A program made the translations under genes and the position numbers. Positions 4,290 through 29,327 of a stretch of DNA of 30,727 bases are shown here, piece by piece. The first letter of the stretch is position 1. Each line of letters starts with the position of its first letter. The notes beneath the pieces were generated by a model, which was not told the origin of the DNA, did not search any database, and saw only the letters and a list, made by a program, of their open reading frames with translations. Source of the stretch: a virus; the UHGV virus genome UHGV-0157886; one strand, 5' to 3'.

Positions 4290-4294
4290 TTAAT

Positions 4295-8607: not shown

Positions 8608-9152
8608 TATAATCCTCCGGGTAATCTGGTTCCTGCTGCTGCCCCGATTGGCGCAGGAGTGCTTTGAGTAAACGGACTCCACGTCCCACCAAACATCTGG
8701 TACGCACCGTATGCCTTCAGAGGCGCAGTGAGCAATGTTGTTGCTGCTCCCACATTCCCCTGTTTACGGGCTGAACTGGCTTCTGCTTTATAGTTGGCAG
8801 CCTGAACCTGATAACCGTAAGCCTCGCGTTGCGCGTTATTCACCGTCGTCAGCGAATCAAGAGCGCCAAACTGGGCAGTGTCGCCAAATATATCCAGCGC
8901 GTTACCTGTAGATAAATCAGCGCCGGTAGCCCCCATTGTCGCCGCCTGTGTACCAAGCCGCTGTCGGGTCTCTCTGCGTCGTTGCTCAGCTTCAGCGTTA
9001 CCTCTGTTTATTGCATCATTTGCCTGAGCTGTGGCTATATCTGCGTTCGCTTCTGCAACCTTCGAGGCATACTTTCCCTGTTGGTACTGGGTGTATGCCT
9101 GAATGCCACTCATGGCGAGCATTGCGCCACCAGCAATAACCGGATCGCACAT
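8607..9152 (-). CDS. Internal virion protein (181 aa, Ala/Gln-rich), T7 gp14 position
   Basis: Start overlaps the upstream stop (TAATG at 9150-9154). Size and position match podovirus internal core protein B. Confidence 0.45.
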   Translation of the reverse strand: MCDPVIAGGAMLAMSGIQAYTQYQQGKYASKVAEANADIATAQANDAINRGNAEAEQRRRETRQRLGTQAATMGATGADLSTGNALDIFGDTAQFGALDSLTTVNNAQREAYGYQVQAANYKAEASSARKQGNVGAATTLLTAPLKAYGAYQMFGGTWSPFTQSTPAPIGAAAGTRLPGGL

Positions 9153-9616
9153 TATTTTCTCTCCATGTGAAATCTGTGGAAATTAAGACCAAGAGCACCA
9201 TAAGGCGCGGCTTCTTCAAGCCTGAATCCAAGCCAGTGCAGCCATGCTTTGGCAACATGGTTTCGCTCGTCGACGTAGTTTTCCAGGCGCGGATAAACTG
9301 CCAGCATCTGCTGCAATACAGGGCGGCAGTGGCGCAGAAATGTCTTCTGATATTTTTCAATACGGCTGGTTCCTACCAGCCAGGGCGTACCATTGCCACC
9401 GATCATTGACGCCGGAGATACACCAAACATGGTTACCAGTTCTCCGTTCGCGAACCCTGACCAGGCCATAGTCGCAGTGCGAAGACCAACGCGCAGCGCA
9501 TCTTCGGTAGTCATCAGCGATACCGCATACAGTTCGTCAATATCAGCCTGACGAACATCCGGCAAAATCATCTGAAGATGCTCTTCGGTAGCGGGAATAA
9601 TTTGAACATCGATCAT
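9152..9616 (-). CDS. Virion-associated protein (154 aa), T7 gp13 position
   Basis: Translationally coupled between the tail tubular B-like gene and the gp14-like gene. No recognisable motif. Confidence 0.4.
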   Translation of the reverse strand: MIDVQIIPATEEHLQMILPDVRQADIDELYAVSLMTTEDALRVGLRTATMAWSGFANGELVTMFGVSPASMIGGNGTPWLVGTSRIEKYQKTFLRHCRPVLQQMLAVYPRLENYVDERNHVAKAWLHWLGFRLEEAAPYGALGLNFHRFHMERK

Positions 9617-12087
9617 CAGAATCCCCCAACAGTAAGGCGAGGAATAACGGCAAGAACAGACAGCGGCAACGGGTCAAGCTGACGGATTTTTACACGCCCG
9701 TTTTTGCCCCAGTTACTGTCCAGTTTCACTTCTACTTTTCCGGTAGCATCATCAACAGGATCATCGTAGAACTCGAATTCACGCTGTGGATATTCGTACC
9801 ATTTACCGCCGGGCGTAGTCGCCCAGATGCCGCGACTGGCATTCACAACCAGAGTAACGGACGGGATCACCTGTTTTTTGTCCAGCAGCGTTTCCTGTCC
9901 GTTAATGTTGATATCCAGTGTTTCGAATTCAGCAGTTATTGGCAGGCCGATGTGCACAACAGCCCCCGGTGATTCCAGCGTGACGGCACCTCCGGAAACC
10001 ACTTTTTGTGGTTCCACGTTCGCATCAGAGAGGATGTTTACGGTCTGGCCTTCAAGATGAGACAAGCCGCCAAATGTCCGGCGCGCCATCTGCCAGTTCG
10101 TGGTGGCCACATTCCTGAGGGATGGCGGGACGTTCCTGTTAGCACGAACCACTACTGCGGTATTGCTGGTTACAGAAATAATGTCGCAACGTAATTCTTT
10201 TGACACTTCATCGCCAGTATCAGGATCAGCTCCGGTATAAGGGAACTGTAGTTGCGCACCAACATCACTACTGGTGAAGTACGCACCACCAGAAACACTG
10301 ATTGTATATTCCGCGTGGTAATCCCATTCACCAGAACCACCAGTGATGGTCATCGTTCTGTCAGACGTATTTCTTCCATCATAGCTAAGGCCAGAATCAA
10401 CAAAGAAAGCATCTTCATCGCTGGTAAATAAACGGCTGGACAGTCTCTCGATGTATCTCACTGTTTGCCCGTTAACGGTTCTGTTAACGACGAAATACAC
10501 CGCATCTTCATTGCCTTCGCTGATACTGCATGTGCTTTCATATTTTCCGGTACTGGATTGTGGTGCCCATGCAAAAACCTGCTGATCACGCAAATAGGTC
10601 ATCACCAGTAATTTACCGTCATCACGAATGCAGAAGGCACTGGAGTAAGGGACAATCGAGAAGCACCAGTCAACAATGCTGTGCTTCTGAAAAAGATGAT
10701 TGGCAAGGATAGTAAGGTCGTTCCCCTGATAGCCGTCAACATCGAATGAGTAGGCCAGATCACGGACAACACTGCCTTTCTCCTGGACGAACAGAGCAAT
10801 ATTCGCCACGGCAATTGGTGGGACATTGCTCGAACCATTTGATCCCTGAGAGCTGAATGCAAATGATGATGGAGTTAATACTTTGTTCTGGTCGCCGGTG
10901 ATGACGTACTCACCTCCGGAAGTCAGTGCCACCAGCGAACCGACATCAATCAGGTGGCGGATCTCATTAACCTGACGCCCGGCATAGGTGTAGATAATTC
11001 TGTCGTCATCCTGCGTAGGATTGCTTTTGCCAAAATCCTTATAATCCCCAGTACGGCTGGCCCAGATAGTCTGAGGGAACGCTGTCGATGCGGCGAAGTA
11101 AAGACGTTGTTGATAATAAACAACCGTGCCAGGATAACCGTTAACACTGTTCCAGGCATATTTAGCCCATTTATAGCTGGCATTATCCTCGCCAACGACC
11201 TGCGAAGGGATATAGGAAATCACCTCAGCAGTTGCAGTAGTGCCATTTACAGCAGTTATACGGGCAATGCCAAAACCACTGTGCAGATACTCCCACTCAA
11301 TGCCAGTATCATCATCACCGGATCCGCCCCAGCCATCCCATGATGTGCCTTCTGTATGCGAAGGGCGCAAAGTGCCTGTTTTGCCTGCTGTAACGGCGCG
11401 ATAGTAGTTACTGTCTGCACGGCGAATATCGCCAATCGACGTACTCTTACTGGTTTCCCATACCGGCACAGAATCCACTGCAGGCTGTTCCAGATAGAAC
11501 AATTTGCCTACCTGCTCCGCGCCAAAAATAGAGGCGCTTGCCGTTAACGTAATTGTCCCGGTGCTGGCGCTGGCATAAACCGTCACTGACTCATCAATAT
11601 TGATATCTTCAAATGGCCCGTTCTTCGTTACCACATCAACCAGTTGCCAGTTGTCATGCGCATAGCGGCGCAGCTCTTTCGGCGGGTATGCCGGGTGAAC
11701 CAGCGTAAGCACGTCGGCGCTTTGCGTGAATTTAATTCGGAACAGATCGGCTTCAGTATATGGCGTGGCAATTTCATAAATAACATTGCTGCTGTTCAGC
11801 ACCAACGCACCATCTTTGATAACGCGCATGTACTGGTGTCCGAACTCCAGAGCATAAGTCTGAACCGTCGAGAATTGGAACGGGATCAGGCGGCATTTCC
11901 GATTTGGGTATTTGGCGGCACCGACAAAACGCGTACCAGGTCGATTCTCAACGCCGCCATACTGCCGCACGATAAAGTTATCGCACTTGCGCAATGCTAC
12001 CTGGTACTTCGCCATGTCAATACGCCCGTACAACGACGGTCCAATCTCACCACCGGCAAAGCTGGGCTGGATCCAACTGATAGCCAT
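9616..12087 (-). CDS. Tail tubular protein B-like (nozzle; T7 gp12-like), 823 aa
   Basis: Size close to T7 gp12 (794 aa). N-terminus MAISWIQPSFAGGEIGPSLYGR...NFIVRQYGGVENRPGTRFV resembles the gp12 N-terminal pattern from memory. Directly follows the gp11-like gene. Confidence 0.5.
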   Translation of the reverse strand: MAISWIQPSFAGGEIGPSLYGRIDMAKYQVALRKCDNFIVRQYGGVENRPGTRFVGAAKYPNRKCRLIPFQFSTVQTYALEFGHQYMRVIKDGALVLNSSNVIYEIATPYTEADLFRIKFTQSADVLTLVHPAYPPKELRRYAHDNWQLVDVVTKNGPFEDINIDESVTVYASASTGTITLTASASIFGAEQVGKLFYLEQPAVDSVPVWETSKSTSIGDIRRADSNYYRAVTAGKTGTLRPSHTEGTSWDGWGGSGDDDTGIEWEYLHSGFGIARITAVNGTTATAEVISYIPSQVVGEDNASYKWAKYAWNSVNGYPGTVVYYQQRLYFAASTAFPQTIWASRTGDYKDFGKSNPTQDDDRIIYTYAGRQVNEIRHLIDVGSLVALTSGGEYVITGDQNKVLTPSSFAFSSQGSNGSSNVPPIAVANIALFVQEKGSVVRDLAYSFDVDGYQGNDLTILANHLFQKHSIVDWCFSIVPYSSAFCIRDDGKLLVMTYLRDQQVFAWAPQSSTGKYESTCSISEGNEDAVYFVVNRTVNGQTVRYIERLSSRLFTSDEDAFFVDSGLSYDGRNTSDRTMTITGGSGEWDYHAEYTISVSGGAYFTSSDVGAQLQFPYTGADPDTGDEVSKELRCDIISVTSNTAVVVRANRNVPPSLRNVATTNWQMARRTFGGLSHLEGQTVNILSDANVEPQKVVSGGAVTLESPGAVVHIGLPITAEFETLDININGQETLLDKKQVIPSVTLVVNASRGIWATTPGGKWYEYPQREFEFYDDPVDDATGKVEVKLDSNWGKNGRVKIRQLDPLPLSVLAVIPRLTVGGF

Positions 12088-12695
12088 CAGGACAACCTCG
12101 CAATGGTAAACTCATCAACCGGTGGCTGTGGTTCCTGTGATTCATTCTGGCTATGCGAGCCAGCACTAAGAATCACGCGATTGTACATATTGAGGGCAAA
12201 CGTACCGAGGTCTGCATTCCCAGTCAGCGCCATGTTAATAGCTGCCGCAAGACGCCAGGCCAACGCCTCCATAAAAATGGCATCAAACATGTTCACATCT
12301 GTAACGCGAGAGACATACTTGAGCCATGCCTGAGGCTGGTCTGTGTAGATCAACTTTCCTGTTCCGTTGGTGTCTGCACCAACTTCGTACTGAACGCGCA
12401 TTGCTGCTGTTGGATTGCGTACACCAGGAAGCATAATTTCAGTAATGCGCAGACAATCTGACGGGTACTGGTACGCATATTCCCAGTCAGGCGGTGGATT
12501 GCTCGTATCTGCAAGCGCCACGCGTTTGGTAGCAAAGTTCCAGTCAAAATCAGAAAGCACAGCATCACGACAGGCCTCAAAGTGCAGCGAACATTCCCCC
12601 GCTTCCTTGCTGGCTTCCGTCAGGCTGTTAATGCTGCGGCTGTTGCCAATATTGGACAGCGCACGATTACAGATCTCTACTACAGAGGCCATCAC
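12087..12695 (-). CDS. Tail tubular protein A-like (gatekeeper; T7 gp11-like), 202 aa
   Basis: Size matches T7 gp11 (196 aa). N-terminal EICNRALSNIGNSRSINSLTEAS resembles the gp11 N-terminal pattern. Confidence 0.5.
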   Translation of the reverse strand: MMASVVEICNRALSNIGNSRSINSLTEASKEAGECSLHFEACRDAVLSDFDWNFATKRVALADTSNPPPDWEYAYQYPSDCLRITEIMLPGVRNPTAAMRVQYEVGADTNGTGKLIYTDQPQAWLKYVSRVTDVNMFDAIFMEALAWRLAAAINMALTGNADLGTFALNMYNRVILSAGSHSQNESQEPQPPVDEFTIARLS

Positions 12696-13021
12696 TCACC
12701 TCCGTTACCGTACAGAGTTTCAGCCGCTGATTTTTCTACATCCCCGGAAACAGGAGCGATCGCCATATCAGTGATCTGCAGATCGGCGCTGCGATTAACG
12801 CCATCGTTAGTTTCTCTGGCAGACAGGCCTCGAATAACAGCCTTTGCAGTTATCATCACTTCCGTTCCGACGCCCTTAGGTTGCGCCTTCAGCTTATTCA
12901 ATGTGTCGTTATTAAGAGTGATGCACAGCCCCCACGGGTATTCATCGCGAGTTCTGGTTTCTCCGCTCTCATCCTGGTAGCTGTCAGTGCCGGTTTTGAG
13001 GTTTACGAGTTCCATATACAC
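12692..13021 (-). CDS. Hypothetical virion-module protein (109 aa)
   Basis: ORF in the operon between the capsid and tail tubular genes. Start follows a hairpin and GGAG. Confidence 0.4.
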   Translation of the reverse strand: MYMELVNLKTGTDSYQDESGETRTRDEYPWGLCITLNNDTLNKLKAQPKGVGTEVMITAKAVIRGLSARETNDGVNRSADLQITDMAIAPVSGDVEKSAAETLYGNGGE

Positions 13022-13024
13022 TCC

Positions 13025-13047
13025 TGCAATAAAGGGGCCGAAGCCCC
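13025..13047 (-). terminator. Intra-operon hairpin GGGGC-CGAA-GCCCC followed by a U-tract on the minus transcript; probable attenuator
   Basis: Stem 13034-13038 / 13043-13047; minus strand continues UUUAUUGCA. Lies downstream of the capsid-proximal genes, as often seen after highly expressed capsid genes. Confidence 0.4.
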
Positions 13048-13065
13048 TTGTCTGATCCGCGAGGC

Positions 13066-13410
13066 TTACACGCCCAGTTCTTTACGCTTATCTGCGATCT
13101 TCTCGCGGAGCGTTTCGGCTTTGGCGTTATGGTGTGGCTTCTCGTTAAAGAGCAATTCGTACTCTTCACGGAGCTTATCCAGTTCACCATCATCTGACAC
13201 ATCGTTGATGATTTTGGTGCTGGTTGCTGCCATTGACACCTTTCCTGCAACTTTTGCTTTTGCCTGTCTGGCTGCATCGTTAACAGGTTCCAGTGCGCTA
13301 CCAGGCTCACCTTCGTATTCGATTTCTGCCCCCTCCGGCCACAGAGTGTTATGGATATGAGAGAGGCGCAGAACGCGGTATCTTGGTTTCTCACCTGACA
13401 TCGATATCAC
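13066..13410 (-). CDS. Hypothetical protein (114 aa), charged/coiled-coil C-terminus
   Basis: Most protein-like of the overlapping frames here (the alternative 12984-13394 frame is Cys/Arg-rich). Confidence 0.4.
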   Translation of the reverse strand: MISMSGEKPRYRVLRLSHIHNTLWPEGAEIEYEGEPGSALEPVNDAARQAKAKVAGKVSMAATSTKIINDVSDDGELDKLREEYELLFNEKPHHNAKAETLREKIADKRKELGV

Positions 13411-13411
13411 C

Positions 13412-13849
13412 TTAACCAGTTACTTTTGAACGGATCGGATACGGCGTATTGGCATCAACATCAAGACTGATACCCGCAGTGAATTCGCCAGCCGTTAGTG
13501 GGCCAGTTGCGACGGAGTAGTTAACACGCAGATATCGCTGAACACCGGCAGGCACCTTTGCAGAAACAACTCGTTTACCTGCTGTCAGGGCGGTCTTTGC
13601 CAGTGCACCACTATCATAAATAGTGGTCCATGAGCTGTTATTCTCACTCGTCTGCAACTGGATGTTTACAGTTGCCTCACCACTTGCCGTGGCGGCTTCG
13701 TTAACCAGCACCCAAAACTCAAGCGGGTAACCCACGCCGATATCACGACGTTTTCCGTCAATTGGACCGAGATCGATTACGTCAGTAGAAGCCGCGGTAT
13801 TCGTAACCGCCTGAGCTTCGGAGAACATCAACAGTTTGTCGGTGATCAT
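13412..13849 (-). CDS. Virion protein (145 aa), Thr/Ala/Val-rich; possible capsid decoration protein
   Basis: GGAG 7 nt upstream of the ATG at 13849. Immediately downstream of the major capsid gene. Composition suggests beta-rich fold. Function inferred from position only. Confidence 0.4.
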   Translation of the reverse strand: MITDKLLMFSEAQAVTNTAASTDVIDLGPIDGKRRDIGVGYPLEFWVLVNEAATASGEATVNIQLQTSENNSSWTTIYDSGALAKTALTAGKRVVSAKVPAGVQRYLRVNYSVATGPLTAGEFTAGISLDVDANTPYPIRSKVTG

Positions 13850-13900
13850 CTTCTTTCTCCATTAGTGGGTCTGTTACGACCCACAGGTTAATAACAGGCG

Positions 13901-14893
13901 TTACACCACGCGGGCTTCTGTTTCCAGAAGCGCATCAGTTTCACGGATTGGTACACCACGGAATGAAGTCCACCACTCGCCTTCAGTCTCTTTTACGCTG
14001 ATAGCCAGAGATGTTTTCTCCAGAGACTGCAGATCAAGAGCCTGGCCTACAGTGCGGTTCATGTAGAACACCGGGCGGCCCATGCCACGGTTTGGAATGC
14101 GATGTAGTGCTTTAACCATCAACTTCGCAATATTTGCGGCAGAGGAAGGTTCTGAAAGATTGCTGACATCGATATTTGCAATGCGAACAACATAACGCCA
14201 GTCACGCAGAGCAAGTCCGTTGTCCCATTTGTAATGGGTGCGATAGCCTTCGTACTTGCCGCCATTAGCATCTTCCAGTGTCACCTGGCCTTTATCTTCC
14301 ATCTGGATGCCAGCCTTCTGCCCTTTCGGGAAGATGCCATGCACGGTGTTTTCGCCCCACACCACTAACCAGATTGAGGTGTTATCTGTACCCGTGCCAC
14401 CAGCATCAATGATGTTCTGAGCATTACCCGCAGACAGGCTGGAATAGCGGGAGGACAGTCCCATAAACTGCTGAGGGTTAACGCTGGAATCACCATAAAA
14501 CAGCGTCTGCGCCATCTGCTGATTCATCGCTTCAATAAATGCGCGGTCTTCAGACAGGCGGAATTCGGCGGTATTGCCGTTCAGATCAGCCAGTGACTTA
14601 TCGACTTCAGCATAGGTTTCCAGCATGCCCACGTAATCGGTTACCTGCACTGTGGTTGATTTGCTTGGCTGTACGCCATAGTTCAGCAAACGCCAGGTAG
14701 CTGAAGGTAAACCAGAACGAATGGTGGTTCGGTGTCCGGTAGGAAGGTTCCCTTCGACAAAAGGCATATCCTGAAGGATCGGGTTAGTTTGACCGAGAAG
14801 CTCGATAATCTTATCGACTTTCCCGTTTGGATCGACGCGCTTACCCCAGTCAGCCAGCGTTAGCGCAGTTAAGCCTTTAACAGACATTGTCAT
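13901..14893 (-). CDS. Major capsid protein (330 aa)
   Basis: Follows the scaffold gene in the canonical portal-scaffold-capsid order. Size typical of HK97-fold podovirus capsid proteins. Confidence 0.65.
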   Translation of the reverse strand: MTMSVKGLTALTLADWGKRVDPNGKVDKIIELLGQTNPILQDMPFVEGNLPTGHRTTIRSGLPSATWRLLNYGVQPSKSTTVQVTDYVGMLETYAEVDKSLADLNGNTAEFRLSEDRAFIEAMNQQMAQTLFYGDSSVNPQQFMGLSSRYSSLSAGNAQNIIDAGGTGTDNTSIWLVVWGENTVHGIFPKGQKAGIQMEDKGQVTLEDANGGKYEGYRTHYKWDNGLALRDWRYVVRIANIDVSNLSEPSSAANIAKLMVKALHRIPNRGMGRPVFYMNRTVGQALDLQSLEKTSLAISVKETEGEWWTSFRGVPIRETDALLETEARVV

Positions 14894-14901
14894 TTCCTCT
14901 C

Positions 14902-15597
14902 TTATTTGCCATAGAGCACTTCGGCCGCACTACGCTGGCCTTCATTACCACCGGTGACCATGCCATCTTCAGACATCGCCTTTCCGATTTTCACGAACGT
15001 TTTGACCAGATCAGGGTGATTACCCAGCCCGGTGGTGTTCAGATATTCTTTGAGTTCAGGTGTCCCGAACTGGTCAAGCGCACGCTGTGCGGCGCTAAGG
15101 TTAGAAATCAACTTGTCGCCACCGATTTCTTTGTCAGCTTTTACATCCGCAGCCCACTGCTCGGTTGTTTTCTGCCAGGCTTCTGCCTGGCGCTGCTGAA
15201 CACCTGCCAGAATCTTCGGATAAGCATCAACCAGCTTTTGCGCTTGCTCGTTGGTCAGGTTAAGTTCTCGCGCCACCGGCTCGAATTCCTTCAACGCTTC
15301 TGTATCCAGCTCTACGCCTTCGGCAGCCTGAAACTCGTACTTCTCAGGCGCACCCTCTGGTTTATCGCCGTCCTTTTTTTCATCCTGCTTATCGTTTTCA
15401 GGCTTTTTGTCATCAGCAGGTTTATCGCCATCAGCAACAGGTTGTGGCTTATCACCTTCCTGTTGTGATGGATCACCAACTGGAGCAGGGTTATCACCTG
15501 CAGGCGCTGACGGTTCTGACGCAGCCGGAGCTGCTCCACCATCGACTGGTTGCTCATTGCAAAGACGGCGATACAGCAAACGCTCAAATAAATTCAT
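14902..15597 (-). CDS. Scaffolding protein (about 231 aa) with an acidic Pro/Asp/Lys-rich N-terminal region
   Basis: ATG at 15597 with AGGAG 5 nt upstream (the track start at 15603 is a GTG). Low-complexity acidic N-terminal half and helical C-terminal half are typical of scaffolds. Confidence 0.6.
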   Translation of the reverse strand: MNLFERLLYRRLCNEQPVDGGAAPAASEPSAPAGDNPAPVGDPSQQEGDKPQPVADGDKPADDKKPENDKQDEKKDGDKPEGAPEKYEFQAAEGVELDTEALKEFEPVARELNLTNEQAQKLVDAYPKILAGVQQRQAEAWQKTTEQWAADVKADKEIGGDKLISNLSAAQRALDQFGTPELKEYLNTTGLGNHPDLVKTFVKIGKAMSEDGMVTGGNEGQRSAAEVLYGK

Positions 15598-15599
15598 GA

Positions 15600-15896
15600 T
15601 CACTCCTGTTCACTGGCCTCTTTGGCCATCTTCAAATACTGTTCAGGGCAATGCGCCATAACGCGCTGAAACAGTTCCAGCGCCAGATTGCGTTGCCCCT
15701 CATTAAATGCCATTGCCATAGCATCCATCGGAGAGATAGCGGAAAACACCCGGCCTTTCTCCAGCACAGACCAGACAACGCGACGCCCCTGTTCACTGCT
15801 CATGACAAAGCGAATGTCATCAATTTCACGCTGTGCCATGTCACGTTGCTTACGGGCGTTTTCTTCTTTCAGTTGATCGTCTTCGTAATCTGTCAT
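15600..15896 (-). CDS. Hypothetical head-assembly protein (98 aa) between portal and scaffold
   Basis: Start overlaps the portal stop (ATGA at 15893-15896). Charged helical translation. Confidence 0.45.
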   Translation of the reverse strand: MTDYEDDQLKEENARKQRDMAQREIDDIRFVMSSEQGRRVVWSVLEKGRVFSAISPMDAMAMAFNEGQRNLALELFQRVMAHCPEQYLKMAKEASEQE

Positions 15897-17572
15897 TGTG
15901 ATTGCCCACCCTGACCACTAACTGCATTCGCCATAGCTGACAAAACACTCGGATCCGAAGTTTTAGCTTCGCTTAGCGTCTTGGCACCCTGTGCCGCCGC
16001 CATCCCCATCGCCATCATTTGTTGCTGCTGTTGCTGCTGTGCCCGTTGCTGGCGAGCCTGCTCAACCTGTTCCTGCGGAACAATGACGATTGGAGACACT
16101 CCGGACATATCAGCGAATGCATCGATCGCCTGATCAACGTTGAGTTTGTCGAGAGCTTCTGGTTTCGCTTGCGCAAGTTGACCAATGAAGTTAACCGTGG
16201 ACGCCAGACTGGACAGGCCGATAGACTTCTGCGCCTGAGCCATGACGGAAATGTATTCGACCTTCAGGGGCATGCCTTCCATCGCGTCAGGCGGTGGCGG
16301 CAGCATGTTTTTACGCACCATCATCGAGAAAGCGCGGTCAATGAGAGGATTAAGACATTCGTCGTTCAGACGCTCCAGAACCGGCCCCAACATCAGAAGC
16401 TTTTCTTCTTTCATTTCGATCACCGCTTCAACAGGCATTGAGCGGGTATTGATGTTCTGCAACATCATGAACAGATCGACGAAGTAGGCGCTGTTAATGA
16501 TTTGACGAGTGTCCTGAATGTCTGCCACCAAATCTGCTGTACTGGGGTTAACCAGATAAGCAGGCCTGAAGCCATCCTGACCAGTAATCTGATCGATATA
16601 CGTGATGTCGCCAGGAAGAAGGGAGGCACGCTGATTCTTGAGGGAAGTCGGAGCAACCATCGGCGGATTGGTGGCTTTATCAATCAACTGCGACTTGCGC
16701 TTCTGGAGAAGCTGCAATGCCTTAACAGGTCCAAGCGCCAGCATACCCGGGCATGATGATCCATAAACATCTTCGCCATTAACTTCCCAGCGCGGAGCCA
16801 TAATTGGAAACTCATCGAATCCGGACTCACGCAACAACTTGTCGTTATCGCCACCAACCTCGTAATAAACCGATTTGAATGGCTTGTTCTTGCTATCCAG
16901 CTTCGATGTATCGCGGTCAATGTTCGGGTAAACCGAATGCATCACTTCGATCCACTTCTCGTAGGTGCCGCTTTCCCACATGCTTTTTACGGATTCGCTG
17001 ACGTTATTTAGCCCGAACTCCTGAACAAGCTGACGAACAGTCATAGAGAACTTGCGAAAACAGGTGTCAACACTGCCACGAGGTGAGTTAGCCAGGTAGT
17101 AACTGCCTATCGGGAATGGCATTGTGCGAATGATGTCCTCGTCATCCTCCAGTACCGCCATTGCACCGGTGCTGTATGTGCCGAGGCTTCCGTATAACTG
17201 CGGAAGAGACTGGTAGAGATTCGACTTATTGAACATATCGTTCATGCGGTTCTGCACCGCCTCAAGCCACAACTTAACAGGGCCATAATCCATCATTTCA
17301 GGATCTGGCGTAGCCAGGCGAAACCACGGACGCGCGGGGCTTGTGATGCCTGACATCATGCCGCTGGCGAGAGTGCGCGCCGCCATAGTCCCGGTCGAAT
17401 CAATAATACGTGTATTGCGTCGATCGTTACGGTTGACCTCAGAAGTCAGAAAGCGGGAACCACGCGGGTTGATGTAATCACTCAACTCGCGCCAGTGCGG
17501 CTCGAACGACTGACGCTCGCTTTCAAGTTGTGCGAACTGTTTGTTCAATCGCTCTTTAGTTGTTTCCGCCAT
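15893..17572 (-). CDS. Portal (head-to-tail connector) protein, T7 gp8-like, 559 aa, with C-terminal poly-Gln/Ala-Met tail
   Basis: Directly downstream of the large terminase, with expected size. C-terminus QQRAQQQQQQQMMAMGMAAAQGA resembles the Q/A/M-rich C-terminus of T7 gp8 from memory. Confidence 0.7.
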   Translation of the reverse strand: MAETTKERLNKQFAQLESERQSFEPHWRELSDYINPRGSRFLTSEVNRNDRRNTRIIDSTGTMAARTLASGMMSGITSPARPWFRLATPDPEMMDYGPVKLWLEAVQNRMNDMFNKSNLYQSLPQLYGSLGTYSTGAMAVLEDDEDIIRTMPFPIGSYYLANSPRGSVDTCFRKFSMTVRQLVQEFGLNNVSESVKSMWESGTYEKWIEVMHSVYPNIDRDTSKLDSKNKPFKSVYYEVGGDNDKLLRESGFDEFPIMAPRWEVNGEDVYGSSCPGMLALGPVKALQLLQKRKSQLIDKATNPPMVAPTSLKNQRASLLPGDITYIDQITGQDGFRPAYLVNPSTADLVADIQDTRQIINSAYFVDLFMMLQNINTRSMPVEAVIEMKEEKLLMLGPVLERLNDECLNPLIDRAFSMMVRKNMLPPPPDAMEGMPLKVEYISVMAQAQKSIGLSSLASTVNFIGQLAQAKPEALDKLNVDQAIDAFADMSGVSPIVIVPQEQVEQARQQRAQQQQQQQMMAMGMAAAQGAKTLSEAKTSDPSVLSAMANAVSGQGGQSQ

Positions 17573-17586
17573 TTCAATGACTCCGG

Positions 17587-17793
17587 TTACTGACCAAGTA
17601 GCGTTTTACCGCTGGTATTAGCGGTTGATGTGTCGCCCTGAGAACCGGTAAGCAGCGTAGAACTACGACCAGCAGCAGCGCGACGGCGACGTGTTTCTTC
17701 GTCGCGGGCATCAACAACGGCGGCATCCTGCTCCTGTGGTGCTGCCTGAACTTCTGGTGTTGCAGGCACTGATGGTGAGCTACCCATGCACAT
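17587..17793 (-). CDS. Small basic Ala/Pro/Arg-rich protein (68 aa) immediately upstream of portal
   Basis: ATG at 17793 with GGAG 7 nt upstream. Preferred over the overlapping 79-aa frame in the track. Confidence 0.4.
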   Translation of the reverse strand: MCMGSSPSVPATPEVQAAPQEQDAAVVDARDEETRRRRAAAGRSSTLLTGSQGDTSTANTSGKTLLGQ

Positions 17794-17883
17794 ATCAATG
17801 ACTCCGTACGCAATTAAATTATTACCAATTTAACCACATATGATTTATTTATCGTAGATAGTTGACATTTAACGCACAAATTA

Positions 17884-17898
17884 TTACCTTTCAGGTAA
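17884..17898. promoter_or_regulatory. Operator-like inverted repeat TTACC-N5-GGTAA (site 2) in the portal / tRNA intergenic region
   Basis: Perfect TTACCtttcaGGTAA. TTGACA at 17862-17867 sits 17 bp upstream on the plus strand; AACCACATA at 17832-17840. Confidence 0.5.
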
Positions 17899-18220
17899 CT
17901 AAAGAGTTCATTCCGGTTGCTAACCTGACTGGCTTGTCGTTAAATTGAACAGGTGGAGTGAGCTTTTGTTTTGAGCAGTACGGCGTATGGCACATGCGCC
18001 GATAGCGGTCTGGATACGTTTAAGGGGCACCCTCCCTTGCTCGGGCAAACGAACCAGGTAGCCGGAATGTGCAAGTCGAGCGGTTTTATTCCGCGCACGG
18101 GGATTCACCATCCCGGCGATTCGGTGTGACGCCTCGGAAGAGACGAGGGTACAACGATGAGAGCATTTATGGAGCCGCGACAAAGTGTGGCGCCTTAACA
18201 GGCTAAGTGCTCTCAGCGTT

Positions 18221-18297
18221 GTGGCATTAGCTCAGTTGGACAGAGCAACCGCCTTCTAAGCGGTTGGTCGCAGGTTCGAATCCTGCATGCCACGCCA
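18221..18297 (+). tRNA. tRNA-Arg, anticodon UCU (reads AGA), CCA encoded
   Basis: Manual cloverleaf: acceptor GTGGCAT / ATGCCAC, D-arm GCTCAGTTGGACAGAGC, anticodon stem ACCGC / GCGGT with loop CTTCTAA, T-arm GCAGG-TTCGAATC-CTGC, discriminator G, CCA at 18295-18297. Confidence 0.85.
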
Positions 18298-18340
18298 GAA
18301 TCACGCCTAAGGACCGTGATGCCAGAAGTTCCAGGTGCTT

Positions 18341-18382
18341 GGCGGTGATGGTTTCCCTTGAAGGACTATCACCGCCCTTTTT
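18341..18382 (+). terminator. Intrinsic terminator downstream of the tRNA
   Basis: 9-bp stem GGCGGTGAT / ATCACCGCC followed by CTTTTT. Confidence 0.65.
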
Positions 18383-18460
18383 ACAGCAGGACGCCATTGC
18401 GATGACTTCATGCTGTAAACCAGTACAGCCACGGAAGGCATAACTCATTGCTTCCAGTTC

Positions 18461-18484
18461 GCCCGGTTCGCCGGGCATTTTTTT
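18461..18484 (+). terminator. Second intrinsic terminator (GCCCGG-TTCG-CCGGGC + T8)
   Basis: Perfect 6-bp GC stem with TTCG tetraloop followed by ATTTTTTT. Confidence 0.7.
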
Positions 18485-18527
18485 AAGGTGTGAATCATGA
18501 AATACGAATTCGATGGATTTTGATGTC

Positions 18528-18539
18528 GTGACATGTCAC
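18528..18539. repeat. Perfect 12-bp palindrome GTGACATGTCAC, copy B
   Basis: Identical to copies at 1315-1326 and 20793-20804. Lies just downstream of the large terminase stop. Confidence 0.8.
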
Positions 18540-18543
18540 AAAC

Positions 18544-18570
18544 AGCCAGCCGATGAGCTGGCTTTGTTTT
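18544..18570. terminator. Hairpin AGCCAGC-CGATGA-GCTGGCT with T/A-rich flanks on both sides; possible bidirectional terminator after the large terminase gene
   Basis: 7-bp stem; TTGTTTT follows on the plus strand and GTTTG on the minus strand. Confidence 0.45.
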
Positions 18571-18613
18571 ATCCTCACCAGAGGATATCAGCAGCATTAT
18601 CCCCTCCAGAGGA

Positions 18614-20089
18614 TTAAGCATAGGGATCGTAATCTGTAATGGCCTTGCCTTGCTGGTTCTGCTGACCGGGAATTCGCAGACGCTTCGACACCGGGAAAGC
18701 AAACGTCAGCAGTAGCGCATCGCCTTTACCCGGCGAACGCCCAAGCCGCTCCTTGATATCTTCCTTCGGTTCGATAACGATTTTACCGTCCACGCGAACT
18801 TTGTACTCTGCCGCCGACAGGTCGTCCGCTGTTTCCTGGTCATCCAGCATGCCGCCCAGCCTCAGCCATGTCTTGCATGCATTGAACATCTCCCCACGCT
18901 TGTTAAGCATCTGCGGGTCAGTGGACGCACCGCCGAACGGAACAAGTTGCCATGTACGTCCCCAGCCATCACCGATTGACTTCAAACCGGTTCCGTAACC
19001 GAAGTCGATGAACACCGCGTCAGCCTGGTACTGGTCTTCAAAGTCAGCGATACGCTTCGCCATAATCAGATCGTCGGTTGTCTTGTTGCCAGTCCATAGC
19101 ACCTTACTGTGCAGCCCCTGCCGCAGGTATATCACCGCGTCATCAACGCCTGAATATGCCGGGTCAACACCGATTATCACCGGAGCATGCGCCACCTGCG
19201 CAGCGGTTACCACCCGTTTCATTGCCTCATCAGTAAGACCGGTAGGGATAAACTGCAATTCAGATGCATCAGGGAATATGCCGCGCACACGGATTTTAAC
19301 GAAGTCGCTGTCTTCCCCGTAGTCATCAACCCATTTCTGCAACTGCTGTTTGTTAGTGCCTTCCACCGTCCGGCTGTCAATCTGCGCAGTTTTCCAGCGG
19401 TGTTTATATTTGCGGAAACATTCACGGAATCGCCCGGTATTACGCGTCGGGTTTCCGAACGCCACCCAGATAATCTCAGTGTCTTCGTCCGTTAGCGCAC
19501 CTTCGGCAACTTCCCACACCAGATCCGCAATATTCGACGCTTCATCGAATACCACGATGATGCGTTTGCGCTCGTTGTGTAGTCCGGCGAATGCCTCAGT
19601 GTTGTGCTCAGACCAGGGGATTGCGTCAGCTCGCCACCGCTTGTCGTGTCCAGGGTCATTGCTGTACATCGCGGTAGCTGTACAGGTAAACCAGTCTTTC
19701 GTGATAGCAAGGTTTGACCACTTGATAATTTCCGGCCAGGTCTTCGTTCGTAGCTGGTTGTCGGTGTTGGCGGTCACCACGACCTTACAATCCTCGCAAG
19801 TGGACATGCCCCAGTTGATCAGCATTGAGATGAATGCGGATTTACCAATACCGTGACCCGAAGCACGTGCCAGCATAAGCGGCTGATAGCGCGTCTCTGG
19901 ATTCTGCAGGTGATCACGTATCTCTCGGAACGCATCAGCCTGCCACTTACGTGGGCCGGTAGCATGTGCCAGTTCAGTCCCCTCTTCCCCCCACGGGAAC
20001 GCATAGAGGGCATAGCCAAGCGGATCGTGAGTGAACCCTGCAATATCCTCGATCAACTGCTCTTCAGGAGATAACGCTGTATCTGTCAC
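18614..20089 (-). CDS. Terminase large subunit (491 aa)
   Basis: Walker-A-like ARASGHGIGKSA near the N-terminus. Size, acidic nuclease-like C-terminal half, and position immediately after the small subunit with overlapping stop/start. Confidence 0.8.
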   Translation of the reverse strand: MTDTALSPEEQLIEDIAGFTHDPLGYALYAFPWGEEGTELAHATGPRKWQADAFREIRDHLQNPETRYQPLMLARASGHGIGKSAFISMLINWGMSTCEDCKVVVTANTDNQLRTKTWPEIIKWSNLAITKDWFTCTATAMYSNDPGHDKRWRADAIPWSEHNTEAFAGLHNERKRIIVVFDEASNIADLVWEVAEGALTDEDTEIIWVAFGNPTRNTGRFRECFRKYKHRWKTAQIDSRTVEGTNKQQLQKWVDDYGEDSDFVKIRVRGIFPDASELQFIPTGLTDEAMKRVVTAAQVAHAPVIIGVDPAYSGVDDAVIYLRQGLHSKVLWTGNKTTDDLIMAKRIADFEDQYQADAVFIDFGYGTGLKSIGDGWGRTWQLVPFGGASTDPQMLNKRGEMFNACKTWLRLGGMLDDQETADDLSAAEYKVRVDGKIVIEPKEDIKERLGRSPGKGDALLLTFAFPVSKRLRIPGQQNQQGKAITDYDPYA

Positions 20090-20682
20090 TGATTACCATC
20101 CTGACGTTCTTTGAGTCGCTTCCTGGCTGCTGCTATGCGATCAGCAATTGTCACATTCACATTAACATCCAGACGTTCTTTGAACGCGTTGACATCAACA
20201 TGCTTACCAATCAGCTCAAGGTTCTTCACCTTGTCAGGCCATTTAATTTTTTTGAGGATTGTCTCTATCGAATCCTCGTTCATGTTCATGATGGTCGATG
20301 ACAGATCAAAGCCACTAAGCGTAGTGCGCCAGATTTTCGGCCACTCACGGATTGGTTTAAGGCTCCCATCGTCGTTGAGGATGTCGATCACGTCCATCTG
20401 GTCGATCTCCACCAGGCGCATGAGAACGTAATCAGCACTGACGCGCATTCGTTTGTTGCGCTCCTCCATCAACTCGGCAATCCGTTTTTGAATGCGTTCA
20501 TCGCGCATCATGACGCTGGCTTTAACTGCCGCTGTATTTGGGGAGAATCCTGCGTTAATCGCTGCCTGAGTCTGGTTTTCAGGCGTTTTGATGTATGACT
20601 GGCAATAAGCCTCCTGCATTGCTGTTAGTGGCTTAAATTGCGTTGATTTGCGTTTATAGGTTTTAGGTTCAGCAGGCATCAT
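20086..20682 (-). CDS. Terminase small subunit (about 198 aa)
   Basis: Basic helical N-terminus, then oligomerisation-like region, directly upstream of and overlapping the large subunit. The ORF-track start at 20760 adds a Thr/Val-rich extension that overlaps the operator repeats and a terminator, so the ATG pair at 20682/20679 (MMPAEPK...) is preferred. Confidence 0.55.
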   Translation of the reverse strand: MMPAEPKTYKRKSTQFKPLTAMQEAYCQSYIKTPENQTQAAINAGFSPNTAAVKASVMMRDERIQKRIAELMEERNKRMRVSADYVLMRLVEIDQMDVIDILNDDGSLKPIREWPKIWRTTLSGFDLSSTIMNMNEDSIETILKKIKWPDKVKNLELIGKHVDVNAFKERLDVNVNVTIADRIAAARKRLKERQDGNQ

Positions 20683-20691
20683 AACCACCGT

Positions 20692-20721
20692 GGTAATAGT
20701 TACCGTTGTGGTAATAGTACC
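20692..20721. promoter_or_regulatory. Cluster of TTACC/GGTAA half-sites, including a perfect TTACC-N5-GGTAA at 20700-20714, immediately upstream of the small terminase start
   Basis: GGTAAtagTTACCgttgtGGTAAtagTACC: four alternating half-sites. Confidence 0.5.
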
Positions 20722-20723
20722 AT

Positions 20724-20751
20724 GCAAAATAAAGCCGCCATAGTTGGCGGC
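20724..20751 (-). terminator. Intrinsic terminator in the leader of the packaging operon
   Basis: Hairpin GCCGCC-loop-GGCGGC (20734-20751) followed on the minus transcript by UUUAUUUUG. Confidence 0.55.
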
Positions 20752-20792
20752 AGTATCCAAAACCCGTCAAATTCATCATGCATAATCTACTC

Positions 20793-25821: not shown

Positions 25822-26052
25822 TCATGAGTAGAAGAAGTATGCCAGTTCTGCTTTTGAGCGCAGCCATTGTCTTGATTTACAGGCTTTAAAAAGCCCATCC
25901 ATCAATACCTTACCTGGCATTTTGCGCTTACCTGTTAAGTGAGTCTGGATATAGTGACTCGTCGTTCCGGCTTCCTGTGCGAAGGCTTCACGCTCATCCG
26001 GAGTAAGTGCAAGCCAGTGCTTTTTGAAATCGAAATGTCCGTTATCGCTCAT
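25822..26052 (-). CDS. Cro-like small regulator (76 aa), divergent from the repressor gene
   Basis: Small basic protein with a putative HTH (FAQEAGTTSHYIQTHLTGKR). Transcribed divergently from the CI-like gene across an operator cluster. Family not recognised with certainty. Confidence 0.45.
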   Translation of the reverse strand: MSDNGHFDFKKHWLALTPDEREAFAQEAGTTSHYIQTHLTGKRKMPGKVLMDGLFKACKSRQWLRSKAELAYFFYS

Positions 26053-26088: not shown

Positions 26089-26151
26089 TCACCTATAAGG
26101 TAACAAAAATCAAGGATAGTTACCCATGAGGTGCATTTACCTGTTGGGTAA
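26089..26151. promoter_or_regulatory. Immunity operator cluster: three 15-bp inverted repeats (26089-26103 TCACC-N5-GGTAA; 26120-26134 TTACC-N5-GGTGC; 26137-26151 TTACC-N5-GGTAA) between cro and cI
   Basis: OR1-3-like arrangement in the 154-bp divergent intergenic region. Half-site TTACC/GGTAA is shared with the sites elsewhere in the genome. Confidence 0.6.
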
Positions 26152-26206: not shown

Positions 26207-26791
26207 ATGAAAAGTATCCAGGACGTCCGCAGGCAAAATCTCAACGACTTGATCGACCGTGAATTCAATGGTGTTCAGACGCGGATGGCAGAAAAACTTG
26301 GAACTCAGGCAAATCTGGTAAACCGCTGGGCTCTTGGCAAGAAGGTTATCGGCGACCAGGTTGCACGAAAAATTGAAGCTGCCGCCAATAAACCACGTAA
26401 CTGGCTTGATATCGATCGCTCGCTTTCTCAGGAGGGTTTTCAGCCTGTCGGACCAAGCGACATTGGTCAGCTGGCGGCTCACAACCTGGAACGCTGGATG
26501 AGCGAAAGCCGCGACCTTTCAACACAGGGAAAACTTCACCGCGCATCCGGCGTAGCCCAGGTGACAATCAGCCGCCTGTTAAACAATGAGGTCAGCGTTT
26601 CCATTTCCACCCTGGAGAATGTTGCATCCGCATTCGGGCGTCACGGATATGAATTACTGATTCACCCGCACGACCCTGCGACTATCAACTATGACCGCTC
26701 GCGCTACGCATTGTTACCCGAAACCGAGAAAGCAAAGATCGAAAGTTACATTGAATTTGTCATCAACCAGAACGAAAAAAATAAACAATAA
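26207..26791 (+). CDS. CI-like repressor (194 aa) with two HTH-like segments and no S24 peptidase / autocleavage domain
   Basis: HTH_XRE-like segment QTRMAEKLGTQANLVNRWALGKKVIGDQVARKI and a second HTH-like segment ASGVAQVTISRLLNNEVSVSISTLENVASAFG. No Ala-Gly/Ser-Lys protease motifs. No Shine-Dalgarno sequence (possibly leaderless, like lambda cI from PRM). Confidence 0.55.
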   Translation: MKSIQDVRRQNLNDLIDREFNGVQTRMAEKLGTQANLVNRWALGKKVIGDQVARKIEAAANKPRNWLDIDRSLSQEGFQPVGPSDIGQLAAHNLERWMSESRDLSTQGKLHRASGVAQVTISRLLNNEVSVSISTLENVASAFGRHGYELLIHPHDPATINYDRSRYALLPETEKAKIESYIEFVINQNEKNKQ

Positions 26792-28304: not shown

Positions 28305-29327
28305 ATGTCTATCAATGCACTTAAGGCAGCGGCTACCGGTAACCAAGTTGCACATCATAATGAGAAACCAACAACTCTGGCCGGACTTCTGGCAGACCCA
28401 AAAATTAAAGCTCAGATGGCTTTGGCACTTCCAAAGCACATGACAGCAGACCGTCTGGCGCGCATAGCAACCACAGAGATCCGAAAGGTTCCAAAACTTG
28501 CATCATGCGACCAAGCCAGCTTCCTGGGGGCAATTATGCAATGTGCCCAATTGGGTCTTGAACCAGGCGGAGCTCTTGGACACGCTTACCTGATACCGTT
28601 CGACAAACGCCAGAAAGTAAATGGAAGATGGGAAACCGTATCTACAGAAGCACAGCTGATTATCGGCTATCGCGGAATGATTGACCTTGCCCGCCGCTCT
28701 GGGCAGATCCTGAGTATCTCGGCTCGTACCGTACATACAAACGACAAATTCAGCTACTCATACGGCCTGGAAGAAACGCTCGAGCATTTACCTTGCGAAA
28801 CAGGTGACCGCGGAGAATTAACGCACGTTTACGCCGTTGCACGACTGAAAGATGGCGGAGTCCAATTTGAAGTTATGAGCCGGGCAGACGTTGAGAAAGT
28901 TCGTGCACTGAGCAAAGCCGGTAGCAGTGGCCCATGGGTTGATCACTTCGATGAGATGGCTAAAAAAACAGTAATTCGCCGACTGTTCAAATATCTTCCT
29001 GTTTCTATTGAGATGCAGAAGGCTGTTGTTATGGATGAGCGCGCTGAAGCTGGACTTAGCCAAGATAACGCAGCTGTTATCACTGGTGAATATTCCGTAG
29101 TTGACGATGAGCGTCAACACCTGTCGCCAATTTCAGATTCAGAACGAGAAGAAGCTCGAGAATATATCATCGCGATACTTAATAGCCTGGATCCATCTGC
29201 TGAAGATGCAAAAACGATGTTCAAGCGCGCTGAAAATGAAATTAACACCATGGCTGAAAAGCTCGGTGATGAATATCACCAAAAATTCATGATGACGCTT
29301 AACGATATGCGTCCAGAATTCGAGTAA
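28305..29327 (+). CDS. recT: RecT-family single-strand annealing protein
   Basis: 340 aa with RecT-like core (LGLEPGGALGHAYLIPF...GYRGMIDLARRSG). Paired with the YqaJ exonuclease as in Rac RecET-type modules. Confidence 0.7.
   Translation: MSINALKAAATGNQVAHHNEKPTTLAGLLADPKIKAQMALALPKHMTADRLARIATTEIRKVPKLASCDQASFLGAIMQCAQLGLEPGGALGHAYLIPFDKRQKVNGRWETVSTEAQLIIGYRGMIDLARRSGQILSISARTVHTNDKFSYSYGLEETLEHLPCETGDRGELTHVYAVARLKDGGVQFEVMSRADVEKVRALSKAGSSGPWVDHFDEMAKKTVIRRLFKYLPVSIEMQKAVVMDERAEAGLSQDNAAVITGEYSVVDDERQHLSPISDSEREEAREYIIAILNSLDPSAEDAKTMFKRAENEINTMAEKLGDEYHQKFMMTLNDMRPEFE

Follow-up and report, generated by a model that had tools for sequence, protein, structure and literature searches.

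A structured RNA family upstream of a phage tRNA-Arg, conserved in temperate phages of Escherichia coli and its relatives

In phage HK022, the putL RNA just downstream of PL renders RNA polymerase terminator-resistant on its own (PMC9378689). Here we describe a structured RNA family present in the virus genome UHGV-0157886, whose complete 30,727-nucleotide (nt) stretch is referred to as the window. The window is 97–98% identical to the Escherichia phages phiv142-3 and phiV10, epsilon15-like podophages of the genus Uetakevirus. The region studied is an 820-nt gap between the large terminase gene and a gp3-like open reading frame (ORF), which are encoded with the other late genes on the minus strand. 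The plus strand of this gap carries a tRNA-Arg(UCU) gene and, upstream of it, a member of the structured RNA family (window 17977-18224), which we call the core RNA and describe by the covariance model R1. Loci compared in the analysis are labelled L001 and so on. While an earlier note on this DNA centred on the tRNA, the tRNA, terminators and promoter/operator that it observed are real and ordinary, and the more remarkable object is the RNA upstream.

The core RNA shares several properties with put. Both are non-coding elements of temperate enterobacterial phages that come first after an early promoter under repressor control, with terminators and early genes further downstream. No N gene is found at this position in either system, and both elements are independent of the downstream sequence. 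Put is about 70 nt long and consists of two stem-loops, whereas the core measures 165 nt and combines five helices with a pseudoknot and a pair of variable hairpins, to which an optional module of 70–130 nt is added. HK022 carries two copies of put, which resemble each other in sequence, compared to one core RNA per phage. The effect of put is exerted in cis, needs no protein factor and relies on the beta' zinc-binding domain. R1 finds no match in the HK022 early region that was fetched to cover PL and put. The core RNA is not a member of the put family, from which it differs in size, architecture and sequence.

The CI RNA of P4 and the c4 RNA of P1/P7 (RF01695) resemble the core RNA as small leader RNAs of early or immunity operons in temperate enterobacterial phages, and tRNA-processing enzymes carry out their maturation. 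P1 also has a copy of the core RNA, located in the ban operon and not in that of c4. CI and c4 are antisense regulators of about 70–77 nt with targets in cis, whereas the core RNA is larger, lacks such complementary repeats and is not matched by RF01695. GOLLD and ROOL are large folded non-coding RNAs of phages and prophages, often located beside tRNA genes; they are 580–800 nt long and occur mainly in Firmicutes and metagenomes. The core RNA, in contrast, is 165–250 nt long, belongs to Enterobacterales, is tied to repressor-controlled promoters and has no match in Rfam. Phage tRNAs for rare codons, such as ileZ-argN-argO upstream of stx in Stx phages and the ban tRNAs of P1, are comparable to the tRNA-Arg(UCU), which decodes the rare codon AGA, and those of ban also lie within a repressor-controlled non-coding stretch. 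In the window, however, the tRNA has an antisense orientation relative to the late operon and is fused base for base to the 3' stem of a larger RNA. A further comparison is offered by boxA/Nus antitermination, which protects untranslated transcripts in lambda nut, rrn leaders and CRISPR leaders. Lambda nut requires a single-stranded boxA (CGCUCUUA or UGCUCUUUAACA) followed by a boxB hairpin bound by N.

The core RNA is real, structured, non-coding and strongly constrained. R1 matches the window at 17976-18155 of the plus strand with 147.4 bits (E 3e-46), supporting the earlier guess of a non-coding RNA within 17920-18220. The conserved part extends over 17977-18150. In the alignment, invariant blocks are interrupted by hairpins that differ in sequence and length, and compensatory changes are evident; the structure was drawn from those found in alignment A2, which contains 64 distinct cores. 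H1 (17981-18001, loop GGCAC) is followed by H2 (18006-18013 paired with 18054-18064), which encloses the variable hairpin V1. The invariant 19-mer GGTAGCCGGAATGTGCAAG occupies 18057-18075 and overlaps the junction helix H3 (18075-18077 with 18115-18117), which encloses the variable hairpin V2. H5 (18100-18114) contributes its loop to the pseudoknot PK1, formed by CACC at 18106-18109 and GGUG at 18123-18126. H6 (18132-18148, loop GAAGAGA) completes the fold. The invariant single-stranded blocks include GGUAGCCGGAAUGUGCAAG.

Standard pairs occupy 96.2% of the cells in A2, compared to 27–40% with slid partners, and 12 pairs change on both sides. R1 comprises 165 positions and 28 pairs. It was used to re-align 60 matches, 56 of them distinct, a set that includes genome sequences fished with another pattern. 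Here, 96.8% of the cells are paired (27–40% with slid partners), and changes on both sides are seen in 13 pairs. None of 500 shuffles of the 56 distinct sequences attains the observed values for pairing and covariation. PK1 changes from CACC:GGUG to AACC:GGUU in 8 of the 56 sequences, so that the covarying pair is C-G in 48, A-U in 8 and unpaired in none. A second pseudoknot is possible between GCAC of the H1 loop and GUGC of the 19-mer. Since both sides, eight positions in all, are nearly invariant, covariation neither supports nor refutes this pairing.

The commonest 3' module after the core, type A, is closed by the stem P7 (18150-18169 with 18204-18223), which surrounds the variable insert V3 (18170-18203). 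The pairing of P7 is kept in 32 distinct stem variants, some of them fully compensatory, such as GAUGAUGGCU/AGUCAUC and AAAGGCG/CGCCGUUU. Across the 32 versions, cognate strands fold with a mean of -26.2 kcal/mol, compared to -19.5 kcal/mol for non-cognate strands. Frequently, UGCUCUUU or CGCUCC is found as the 3' strand of P7, ahead of a short hairpin, which gives this strand a likeness to boxA. We rejected a boxA/nut reading of this strand: its bases are paired, and the compensatory swaps AGUCAUC, CGCCGUUU and UACUCUC destroy the boxA-like sequence. Because the compensatory variants replace the boxA-like bases, it is the stem, and not the boxA sequence, that is under selection. P7 and the tRNA-Arg(UCU) form a fixed junction in 29 related loci. 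The tRNA begins inside the 3' strand of P7, its first three bases being the last three of the stem.

It is very unlikely that the block serves merely as a recombination linker at the DNA level, providing a homology patch for cargo swapping while the RNA itself is inert. Such a role would agree with the sharp junctions at which variable cargo begins beside the conserved sequence, with the tandem copies that flank morons in L029, and with the presence of the block in podo-, sipho- and myovirus-type temperate phages alike. The compensatory changes in five helices and the pseudoknot, and the hypervariable hairpins between invariant blocks, speak instead for selection on RNA structure, and the orientation relative to the promoter is constant. 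The covariation already disfavours the linker.

As had been stated from the sequence, there is no credible ORF upstream of the tRNA. The best frame, with both strands considered, is open in only 20 of the 56 cores. The core RNA is not coding, since no frame is open throughout the family and the core lengths fall into all classes modulo 3 (24/15/17). Pfam returns nothing for the minus-strand ORFs of 87 and 83 amino acids (aa) at 17920-18183 and 18227-18478, the latter of which lies antisense to the tRNA. A leader peptide starting at the invariant AUG in GGAAUGUGC was considered and rejected, as manual translation of the window, L008 and mEp460 showed that the frame is not kept; it is not conserved because the length of V2 varies.

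The segment 17920-18220 could also be read as decayed tRNA genes or as a small minus-strand protein gene. The hairpin GGGA-UUCACCA-UCCC, which the earlier note located near 18100-18116 and took for a degenerate T-arm, is indeed present at 18100-18114; it combines a G-C stem with a loop of 7 nt. A minus-strand ORF, p04 (window 18227-18478), is annotated in phiV10, and the mEp460 record has one over the core RNA. ARAGORN, however, calls no tRNA or tmRNA in the segment, and the Rfam tRNA model has no match in it. The hairpin is the conserved helix H5 with its covarying pseudoknot loop: UUCACCA pairs with GGUG 13 nt downstream (C-G in 48 sequences, A-U in 8). Frames are closed across the family, indels are not multiples of three and Pfam is empty. 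Both versions of this reading, including the proposed remnants of further tRNAs, are already refuted.

A search with the 4227 models of Rfam 15 left the core RNA unmatched at E<=1 in the window (17400-18900) and six homologous loci, and at E<=0.1 in 13 further loci, where only cargo elements were matched. The same runs detect tRNAs, C4, isrK and other elements. We also searched the full-text literature, as far as it is searchable, for the invariant 19-mer, prophage leader and antiterminator RNAs, small RNAs (sRNAs) near yfdP/ymfK, transcripts of P1 ban and RprA mimics, and found no description of the core RNA. The prophage sRNAs that are described differ from it: Pas lies near Q and the lysis genes, and HnrS is an sRNA of 66 nt. 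A preprint on the P1vir transcriptome does not mention the region of the core RNA. It is thus probable that the family is undescribed, and it is well supported that the core RNA constitutes a new family without known relative, widespread in E. coli and its relatives.

To describe its distribution, we searched phage genomes by sensitive blastn with 17880-18225 as query. Unannotated stretches of the lambdoid phages mEp460, cdtI, Ayreon and Stx2c- and Stx2a-converting phages share about 80% identity with the part 17980-18224. P1, P7, D6, SJ46 and RCS47 are matched by 17980-18142, while shorter parts match Klebsiella phages and one phage deposited as a Stenotrophomonas phage. The exact 19-mer occurs in at least 120 IMG/VR contigs. 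Blastn with the 251-nt element finds 1840 of the 5426 complete RefSeq E. coli genomes, with 1920 chromosomal and 554 plasmid places. Among 40 records sampled across the E. coli ranking, none has a feature over the core RNA; only the adjacent tRNA is named, and there is no PGAP annotation. The K-12 prophage e14 contains no copy that R1 can find, and its gap after ymfK measures only 175 nt.

For a wider view, one genome per GTDB species was scanned with a pattern derived from H1, and the hits were filtered by R1. This retained 24 of 56 pattern hits, at 126–176 bits; the other 32, from unrelated phyla, are chance hits. Twenty-three of the retained matches belong to Enterobacterales and one to a 1.75-kb contig binned as Bacillota. 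The host genera are Escherichia, Citrobacter, Enterobacter, Klebsiella, Kosakonia, Kluyvera, Phytobacter, Pseudescherichia, Pseudocitrobacter and Superficieibacter, together with 'Candidatus Erwinia dacicola'. Among the phage records with a core RNA, the only non-enterobacterial host label is that of L010 (OM816834, 'Stenotrophomonas phage vB_SmeS_BUCT708'), whose copy is nearly identical to several IMG/VR contigs. This label may merit a recheck, since the isolate-genome hits of the GTDB scan are all in Enterobacterales.

The core RNA is found in three kinds of surroundings. In Uetakeviruses, it occupies the gap between the terminase gene and the gp3-like ORF. In the lambdoid setting, a LexA/cI-type S24 repressor gene lies upstream on the same strand and ends 120–160 nt before the core (63 of 124 loci), and the promoter in front of the RNA resembles pL. 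An O26:H11 prophage illustrates the order: the repressor stop is followed by an intrinsic terminator, the promoter-like sequence TTGACA-16-CATAAT and, about 40 nt later, the core RNA. Next come a strong terminator with a 40-nt hairpin and a T-tract, yfdP-yfdQ-yfdR and the remaining early-left genes. The promoter spacer bears ATGTA-N9-TACAT, which is the operator found between the repressor and cro-like genes (OR region). The same layout is present in the Stx2a phage Stx2a_1447, phage 1720a-02 and mEp460. Inspection of the annotation of four lambdoid-type loci revealed no ORF labelled as an N antiterminator in the stretch from the repressor gene to the early-left genes. In P1-type phage-plasmids, the core RNA forms part of the ban operon, which is under C1 control; tRNA-Ile(CAU) ends 14 nt ahead of it, and ban follows after about 110 nt.

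In the window, the candidate early promoter spans 17862-17890 (+), with the -35 element TTGACA at 17862-17867, a 17-nt spacer and the -10 element TACCTT at 17885-17890. A generic sigma-70 scan does not pass it because of the poor -10 element. The layout TTGACA/TTGACC-17-TACCTT is also seen upstream of the core RNA in Uetakevirus loci from E. coli, Klebsiella and Salmonella. Across the family, 67 of 124 distinct loci (54%) have a promoter-like site (at least 9 of 12 matches) no more than 170 nt upstream, compared to 6% of control windows. The distance from promoter to core is 47–54 nt in lambdoids and 35–96 nt in Uetakeviruses. The -10 element of the window is overlapped by the perfect palindrome TTACCTTTCAGGTAA (17884-17898). 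The operator that had been suspected there is a copy of the phage's own repressor operator. Its motif TTACCT-N3-AGGTAA occurs 15 times in the window, compared to 0.6 expected, with perfect copies at 17884, 23762 and 23824. An operator pair at 26089/26137 lies between the divergent genes 26207-26791 (+), which encodes a helix-turn-helix protein, and 25822-26052 (-), an arrangement that looks like the immunity switch. Sites are also present at 943, 25752 and 26849, with weaker ones besides. Judging from these sites, one repressor seems to control many promoters, including sites beside late genes.

Between promoter and core, a leader hairpin is predicted at 17901-17967 (+), where AAAGAGUUCAUUCC pairs with GGUGGAGUGAGCUUUU in the minimum free energy fold. 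It is restricted to the Uetakevirus versions, and its 11-bp consensus stem is retained in Tyrion, a Klebsiella phage and epsilon15. The GenBank record of epsilon15 annotates repressor, IHF and RNase III sites at equivalent positions. The 'RNaseIII' annotation coincides with the conserved leader hairpin, which is a putative processing site.

Downstream of the tRNA, the three terminators proposed earlier are all recovered by the pattern scan as plus-strand hairpins with T-tracts. T1 (18341-18382, hairpin 18341-18376, +) is predicted from a 14-bp stem followed by CUUUUU. T2 (18461-18484, hairpin 18461-18476, +) is predicted from GCCCGG-UUCG-CCGGGC followed by AUUUUUUU. The predicted T3 (18544-18570, hairpin 18544-18563) is situated just past the terminase stop. 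It may act bidirectionally, since the phiV10 record annotates it on the other strand. The scan finds four terminator-like sites in total, compared to 1.5 +/- 1.1 in shuffles; besides T1 to T3 there is a weak one inside the leader (17913-17932).

T2 is a conserved junction that precedes a slot for a cargo ORF. In Uetakevirus loci, an ORF with a Shine-Dalgarno sequence begins 11–16 nt after the T2 T-tract, and its identity varies. PhiV10 has an additional ORF of 123 aa after the second terminator, a member of the gp49/66 family (Pfam PF13876, E 6e-35). Epsilon15 also has a gp49/66-family ORF (PF13876) in the slot, and other relatives have Tad2-like or unknown ORFs. In the window, the slot is reduced to a stump at 18485-18523 (+), with the Shine-Dalgarno sequence AAGGUG, an ATG at 18497 and 8 codons. 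The island is thus variable, as the earlier note had suspected. Epsilon15 is a deletion remnant: only H1 and the start of H2 are left (L003 3543-3618, 38.8 bits), and the deletion took the rest of the core RNA, the tRNA and the first terminator, joining to the equivalent of about 18385 in the window. The antisense unit had been considered an oddity of this genome, but it is kept across Uetakeviruses of E. coli, Klebsiella, Salmonella and Enterobacter.

The combination of terminator and cargo is common in the family. An intrinsic terminator lies within 700 nt downstream of the core in 84 of 121 loci, compared to 29% of controls. Of 78 such loci, 58 show the start of an ORF with at least 60 codons and a Shine-Dalgarno sequence no further than 150 nt past the terminator (control 15.5%). 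The first terminator is found about 40–640 nt past the core, or 132–735 nt from the start of the 19-mer, and just 3 loci have an ORF between core and terminator. In some classes an ORF or, as in L091, a terminator follows the core directly. Thirty-eight unrelated classes can be distinguished in the sequence that follows the core. A tRNA abuts the core RNA at the 3' end in 29 loci and at the 5' end in 17 P1-type loci. At least 22 loci of several classes (e.g. L010 1631-1750; also L123, L142, L018, L112 and L182) carry downstream of the core an RprA-like sRNA with its own terminator and an intact rpoS-pairing seed, GCUGUGUGUAGUCUU. The Rfam RprA model scores this element at 50 bits (E 8e-4), below the gathering score; it looks like a phage-borne mimic of the host sRNA. 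The 71 distinct first ORFs include nine members of the N4 gp49/Sf6 gp66 family, six Tad2-like (Thoeris anti-defence) ORFs and two excisionase-like ones. RdgC, a DnaB-type helicase (ban) and an HNH endonuclease are each matched once, and most first ORFs have no Pfam match.

This diversity bears on the possibility that the core is a riboswitch-like sensor. Its ligand would be a small molecule, conceivably a nucleotide that signals stress or immunity, and binding would gate transcription into the cargo. The core does resemble an aptamer in its size, its pseudoknot, its multi-helix junction and the strict conservation of the junction nucleotides. The core also occupies a 5' leader position with terminators downstream, and some cargo consists of Tad2-like nucleotide sponges. 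A conserved expression platform is absent, however: the post-core classes are unrelated and the terminators lie at variable distances of about 40–640 nt. The cargo is heterogeneous, comprising tRNA, sRNA, helicase and excisionase, and no riboswitch family of Rfam 15 matches. We therefore regard a sensor as improbable.

Even less credit can be given to a negative, immunity-type leader RNA in the style of P4 CI and P1/P7 c4, which would pair nearby and cause premature termination downstream. Its gene order, with promoter, RNA, terminator and early genes, is that of P4, and the adjacent tRNA recalls the processing of CI and c4 by RNase P. Complementary targets in cis would be needed, yet members share an invariant core and have unrelated flanks. 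Moreover, protein repressors already act on the same promoter, and RF01695 misses the core but detects a true c4 elsewhere in mEp460.

The gap is best explained as a small plus-strand transcription unit that is antisense to the late genes and under the control of the phage repressor. It would consist, in order, of promoter/operator (17862-17898), leader hairpin, the RNA of about 245 nt (17977-18224), tRNA, T1 and T2, the emptied slot and T3. We favour the reading that the core RNA is a put-like, cis-acting antiterminator or early leader, with a probability of roughly 0.4. The nascent, folded core would act in cis on its own RNA polymerase and confer resistance to termination, as put does in HK022. 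After loss of the repressor, this would allow expression of the untranslated cargo and of genes beyond the terminators. In the window, the tRNA would be the only cargo left, and its release by RNase P would also trim the 3' end of the core RNA. The tandem terminators, we guess, might halt the modified polymerase before it collides with convergent transcription of the terminase gene.

Several observations favour this role. Genes behind strong terminators need read-through. No protein gene is located between promoter and terminator, and the RNA is the sole conserved element there, which points to it as the read-through agent. In the repressor-flanked lambdoid and the Uetakevirus loci, the core RNA is the first element transcribed behind the predicted early promoter. 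That the core is kept while the flanking cargo changes fits action on a conserved host machine rather than on a local expression platform.

Other observations weigh against it. We infer the antitermination step from analogy and gene order, and the core has more than twice the size of put and nothing in common with it. In 37 of 121 loci no downstream terminator is detectable. In P1, the core RNA is 2.3 kb from the C1-controlled ban promoters and no terminator precedes ban. Nothing useful lies behind the terminators of the window, and cargo genes could have promoters of their own that are missed by a simple scan. The core RNA is dispensable in Uetakeviruses, since the viable epsilon15 has lost most of it. 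Finally, features suggestive of release are present: the RNase III-type leader hairpin, a terminal tRNA in 46 loci and, in one locus, a hammerhead-like motif.

These last features would suit a processed, stable RNA that acts in trans. Such an RNA would be excised from the early transcript by RNase III in the leader, by RNase P or tRNA 3' processing next to an adjoining tRNA, or by a hammerhead in one variant, and would bind a conserved host component; early in infection or induction, it could, for example, act as a decoy for a host factor involved in defence or housekeeping, or inhibit it. Taken by itself this is a doubtful proposal, but it is nearly as likely as the cis-acting antiterminator. 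The invariant single-stranded blocks, shared by unrelated phage types, fit recognition of a conserved partner, and tRNAs adjoin the 3' end in 29 loci and the 5' end in 17 P1-type loci. The epsilon15 record marks the leader hairpin as an RNase III site, V3 of L064 contains the hammerhead-like motif, and the L091 member ends with a terminator right after the core. The RNA is dispensable in epsilon15, and with Tad2-like anti-defence cargo nearby the slot behaves as an early accessory or anti-defence island. On the other side, the 3' end is inconsistent, with a terminator about 40–640 nt past the core that is absent in a third of the loci. The core is preceded by a variable, untranscribed-looking leader of 35–96 nt. 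Action in trans would also leave the regular placing of genes behind the downstream terminator unexplained.

The hammerhead-like motif (L064 384-430) consists of stem I, CUGAAGAG, stem II, CGAAAC, stem III and GUC. It scores 28.7 bits with Rfam Hammerhead_1, compared to a gathering score of 34, and is the only convincing case among the loci examined. A hammerhead around GAUGAG of the window itself was rejected, as the U of CUGANGA is absent.

The core RNA is as strongly conserved as the core of a riboswitch and is carried by about a third of complete E. coli genomes. Its carriers include the model phages P1, P7 and phiV10, Stx2a- and Stx2c-converting phages, and phages of Klebsiella, Salmonella and Enterobacter. 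It apparently has been missed by annotation and by Rfam, although it is located where temperate phages turn on their early genes. If the core RNA modifies RNA polymerase, RNA-only antitermination would be widespread beyond HK022, and it would be explained how lambdoid prophages that lack N, including Stx phages, pass the terminator after pL. If the RNA is released, it would be a candidate for a new host-takeover or anti-defence factor. In either case, it marks a recombination-prone slot that gathers tRNAs, RprA-like sRNAs and anti-defence genes and is useful for finding cargo, and R1 provides a direct handle for annotating the family. A more far-reaching proposal, which we advance tentatively, is that the core represents a new class of RNA that reprograms host transcription alone. 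It would then be the second kind of phage antiterminator RNA after put and an 'ignition' module shared by the early accessory and anti-defence islands of lambdoid, P1-like and epsilon15-like phages; or else, just as conceivably, it might be a ligand-sensing or catalytic RNA that couples the cargo, Thoeris-sponge (Tad2-like) genes included, to a signal of the infected cell.

The tRNA-Arg itself is ordinary. ARAGORN (anticodon tct) and Rfam (RF00005, 73.3 bits, E 9e-16, gathering score 29) both place it at 18221-18297 (+), in agreement with the strand and coordinates proposed earlier. It has an encoded CCA and is the one tRNA that ARAGORN calls in the window. AGA is a rare codon in E. coli, where the host uses it about 2 times per 1000 codons. 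A codon count gives 5.8 AGA per 1000 codons in the late ORFs of the window. As this is about three times the host value, the translational role suggested earlier is plausible. The 35 AGA codons of the late region fall without exception within the tail and injection genes (1815-13394); the capsid, portal, gp3 and terminase genes (13412-20760) have none. Since the tRNA is one of several interchangeable cargoes in the family, we read it as a passenger of the RNA-headed unit and not as its reason. The late genes next to the unit, all on the minus strand, are those for the large terminase (18614-20089), the gp3-like ORF (17587-17793) and the portal (15893-17572).

Two related records appear to contain annotation errors at the tRNA. 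That of phiv142-3 (L001, MN187550, 3228-3296) gives the tRNA-Arg on the strand opposite to that called by ARAGORN and Rfam. That of phiV10 (L002, DQ126339, 3228-3479) has the 83-aa ORF p04 antisense to the tRNA.

Further elements were observed near individual cores. An STnc100-like element follows the core at L119 4242-4452 (45.8 bits, compared to a threshold of 47), and L100 has a tRNA-like match of 127 nt after the core (1077-1203). Pieces of 47 nt at L075 4600-4646 and L102 1953-1999 resemble a segment of 16S rRNA (E 1e-5 to 6e-7). In Tyrion (L007 2708-2772), an int-alpA RNA motif is located between two cargo ORFs (44 bits, threshold 35.8). In mEp460 (L005 206-407), a C4 antisense RNA and isrK lie inside the 3' end of an annotated Rha-type antirepressor gene, and the same gene end gives a sub-threshold c4-a1b1 match (22.6 bits, compared to 46.7). 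The window contains a weak second R1 match at 28413-28553 on the minus strand (11.5 bits, E about 0.1), inside the 340-aa ORF 28305-29327, which is most likely due to chance. L029 carries two cores in tandem on the minus strand (4800-4962 and 3993-4157) behind one repressor-controlled promoter. After each copy comes an ORF of about 165 aa on the opposite strand, and one of these two ORFs looks membrane-associated.

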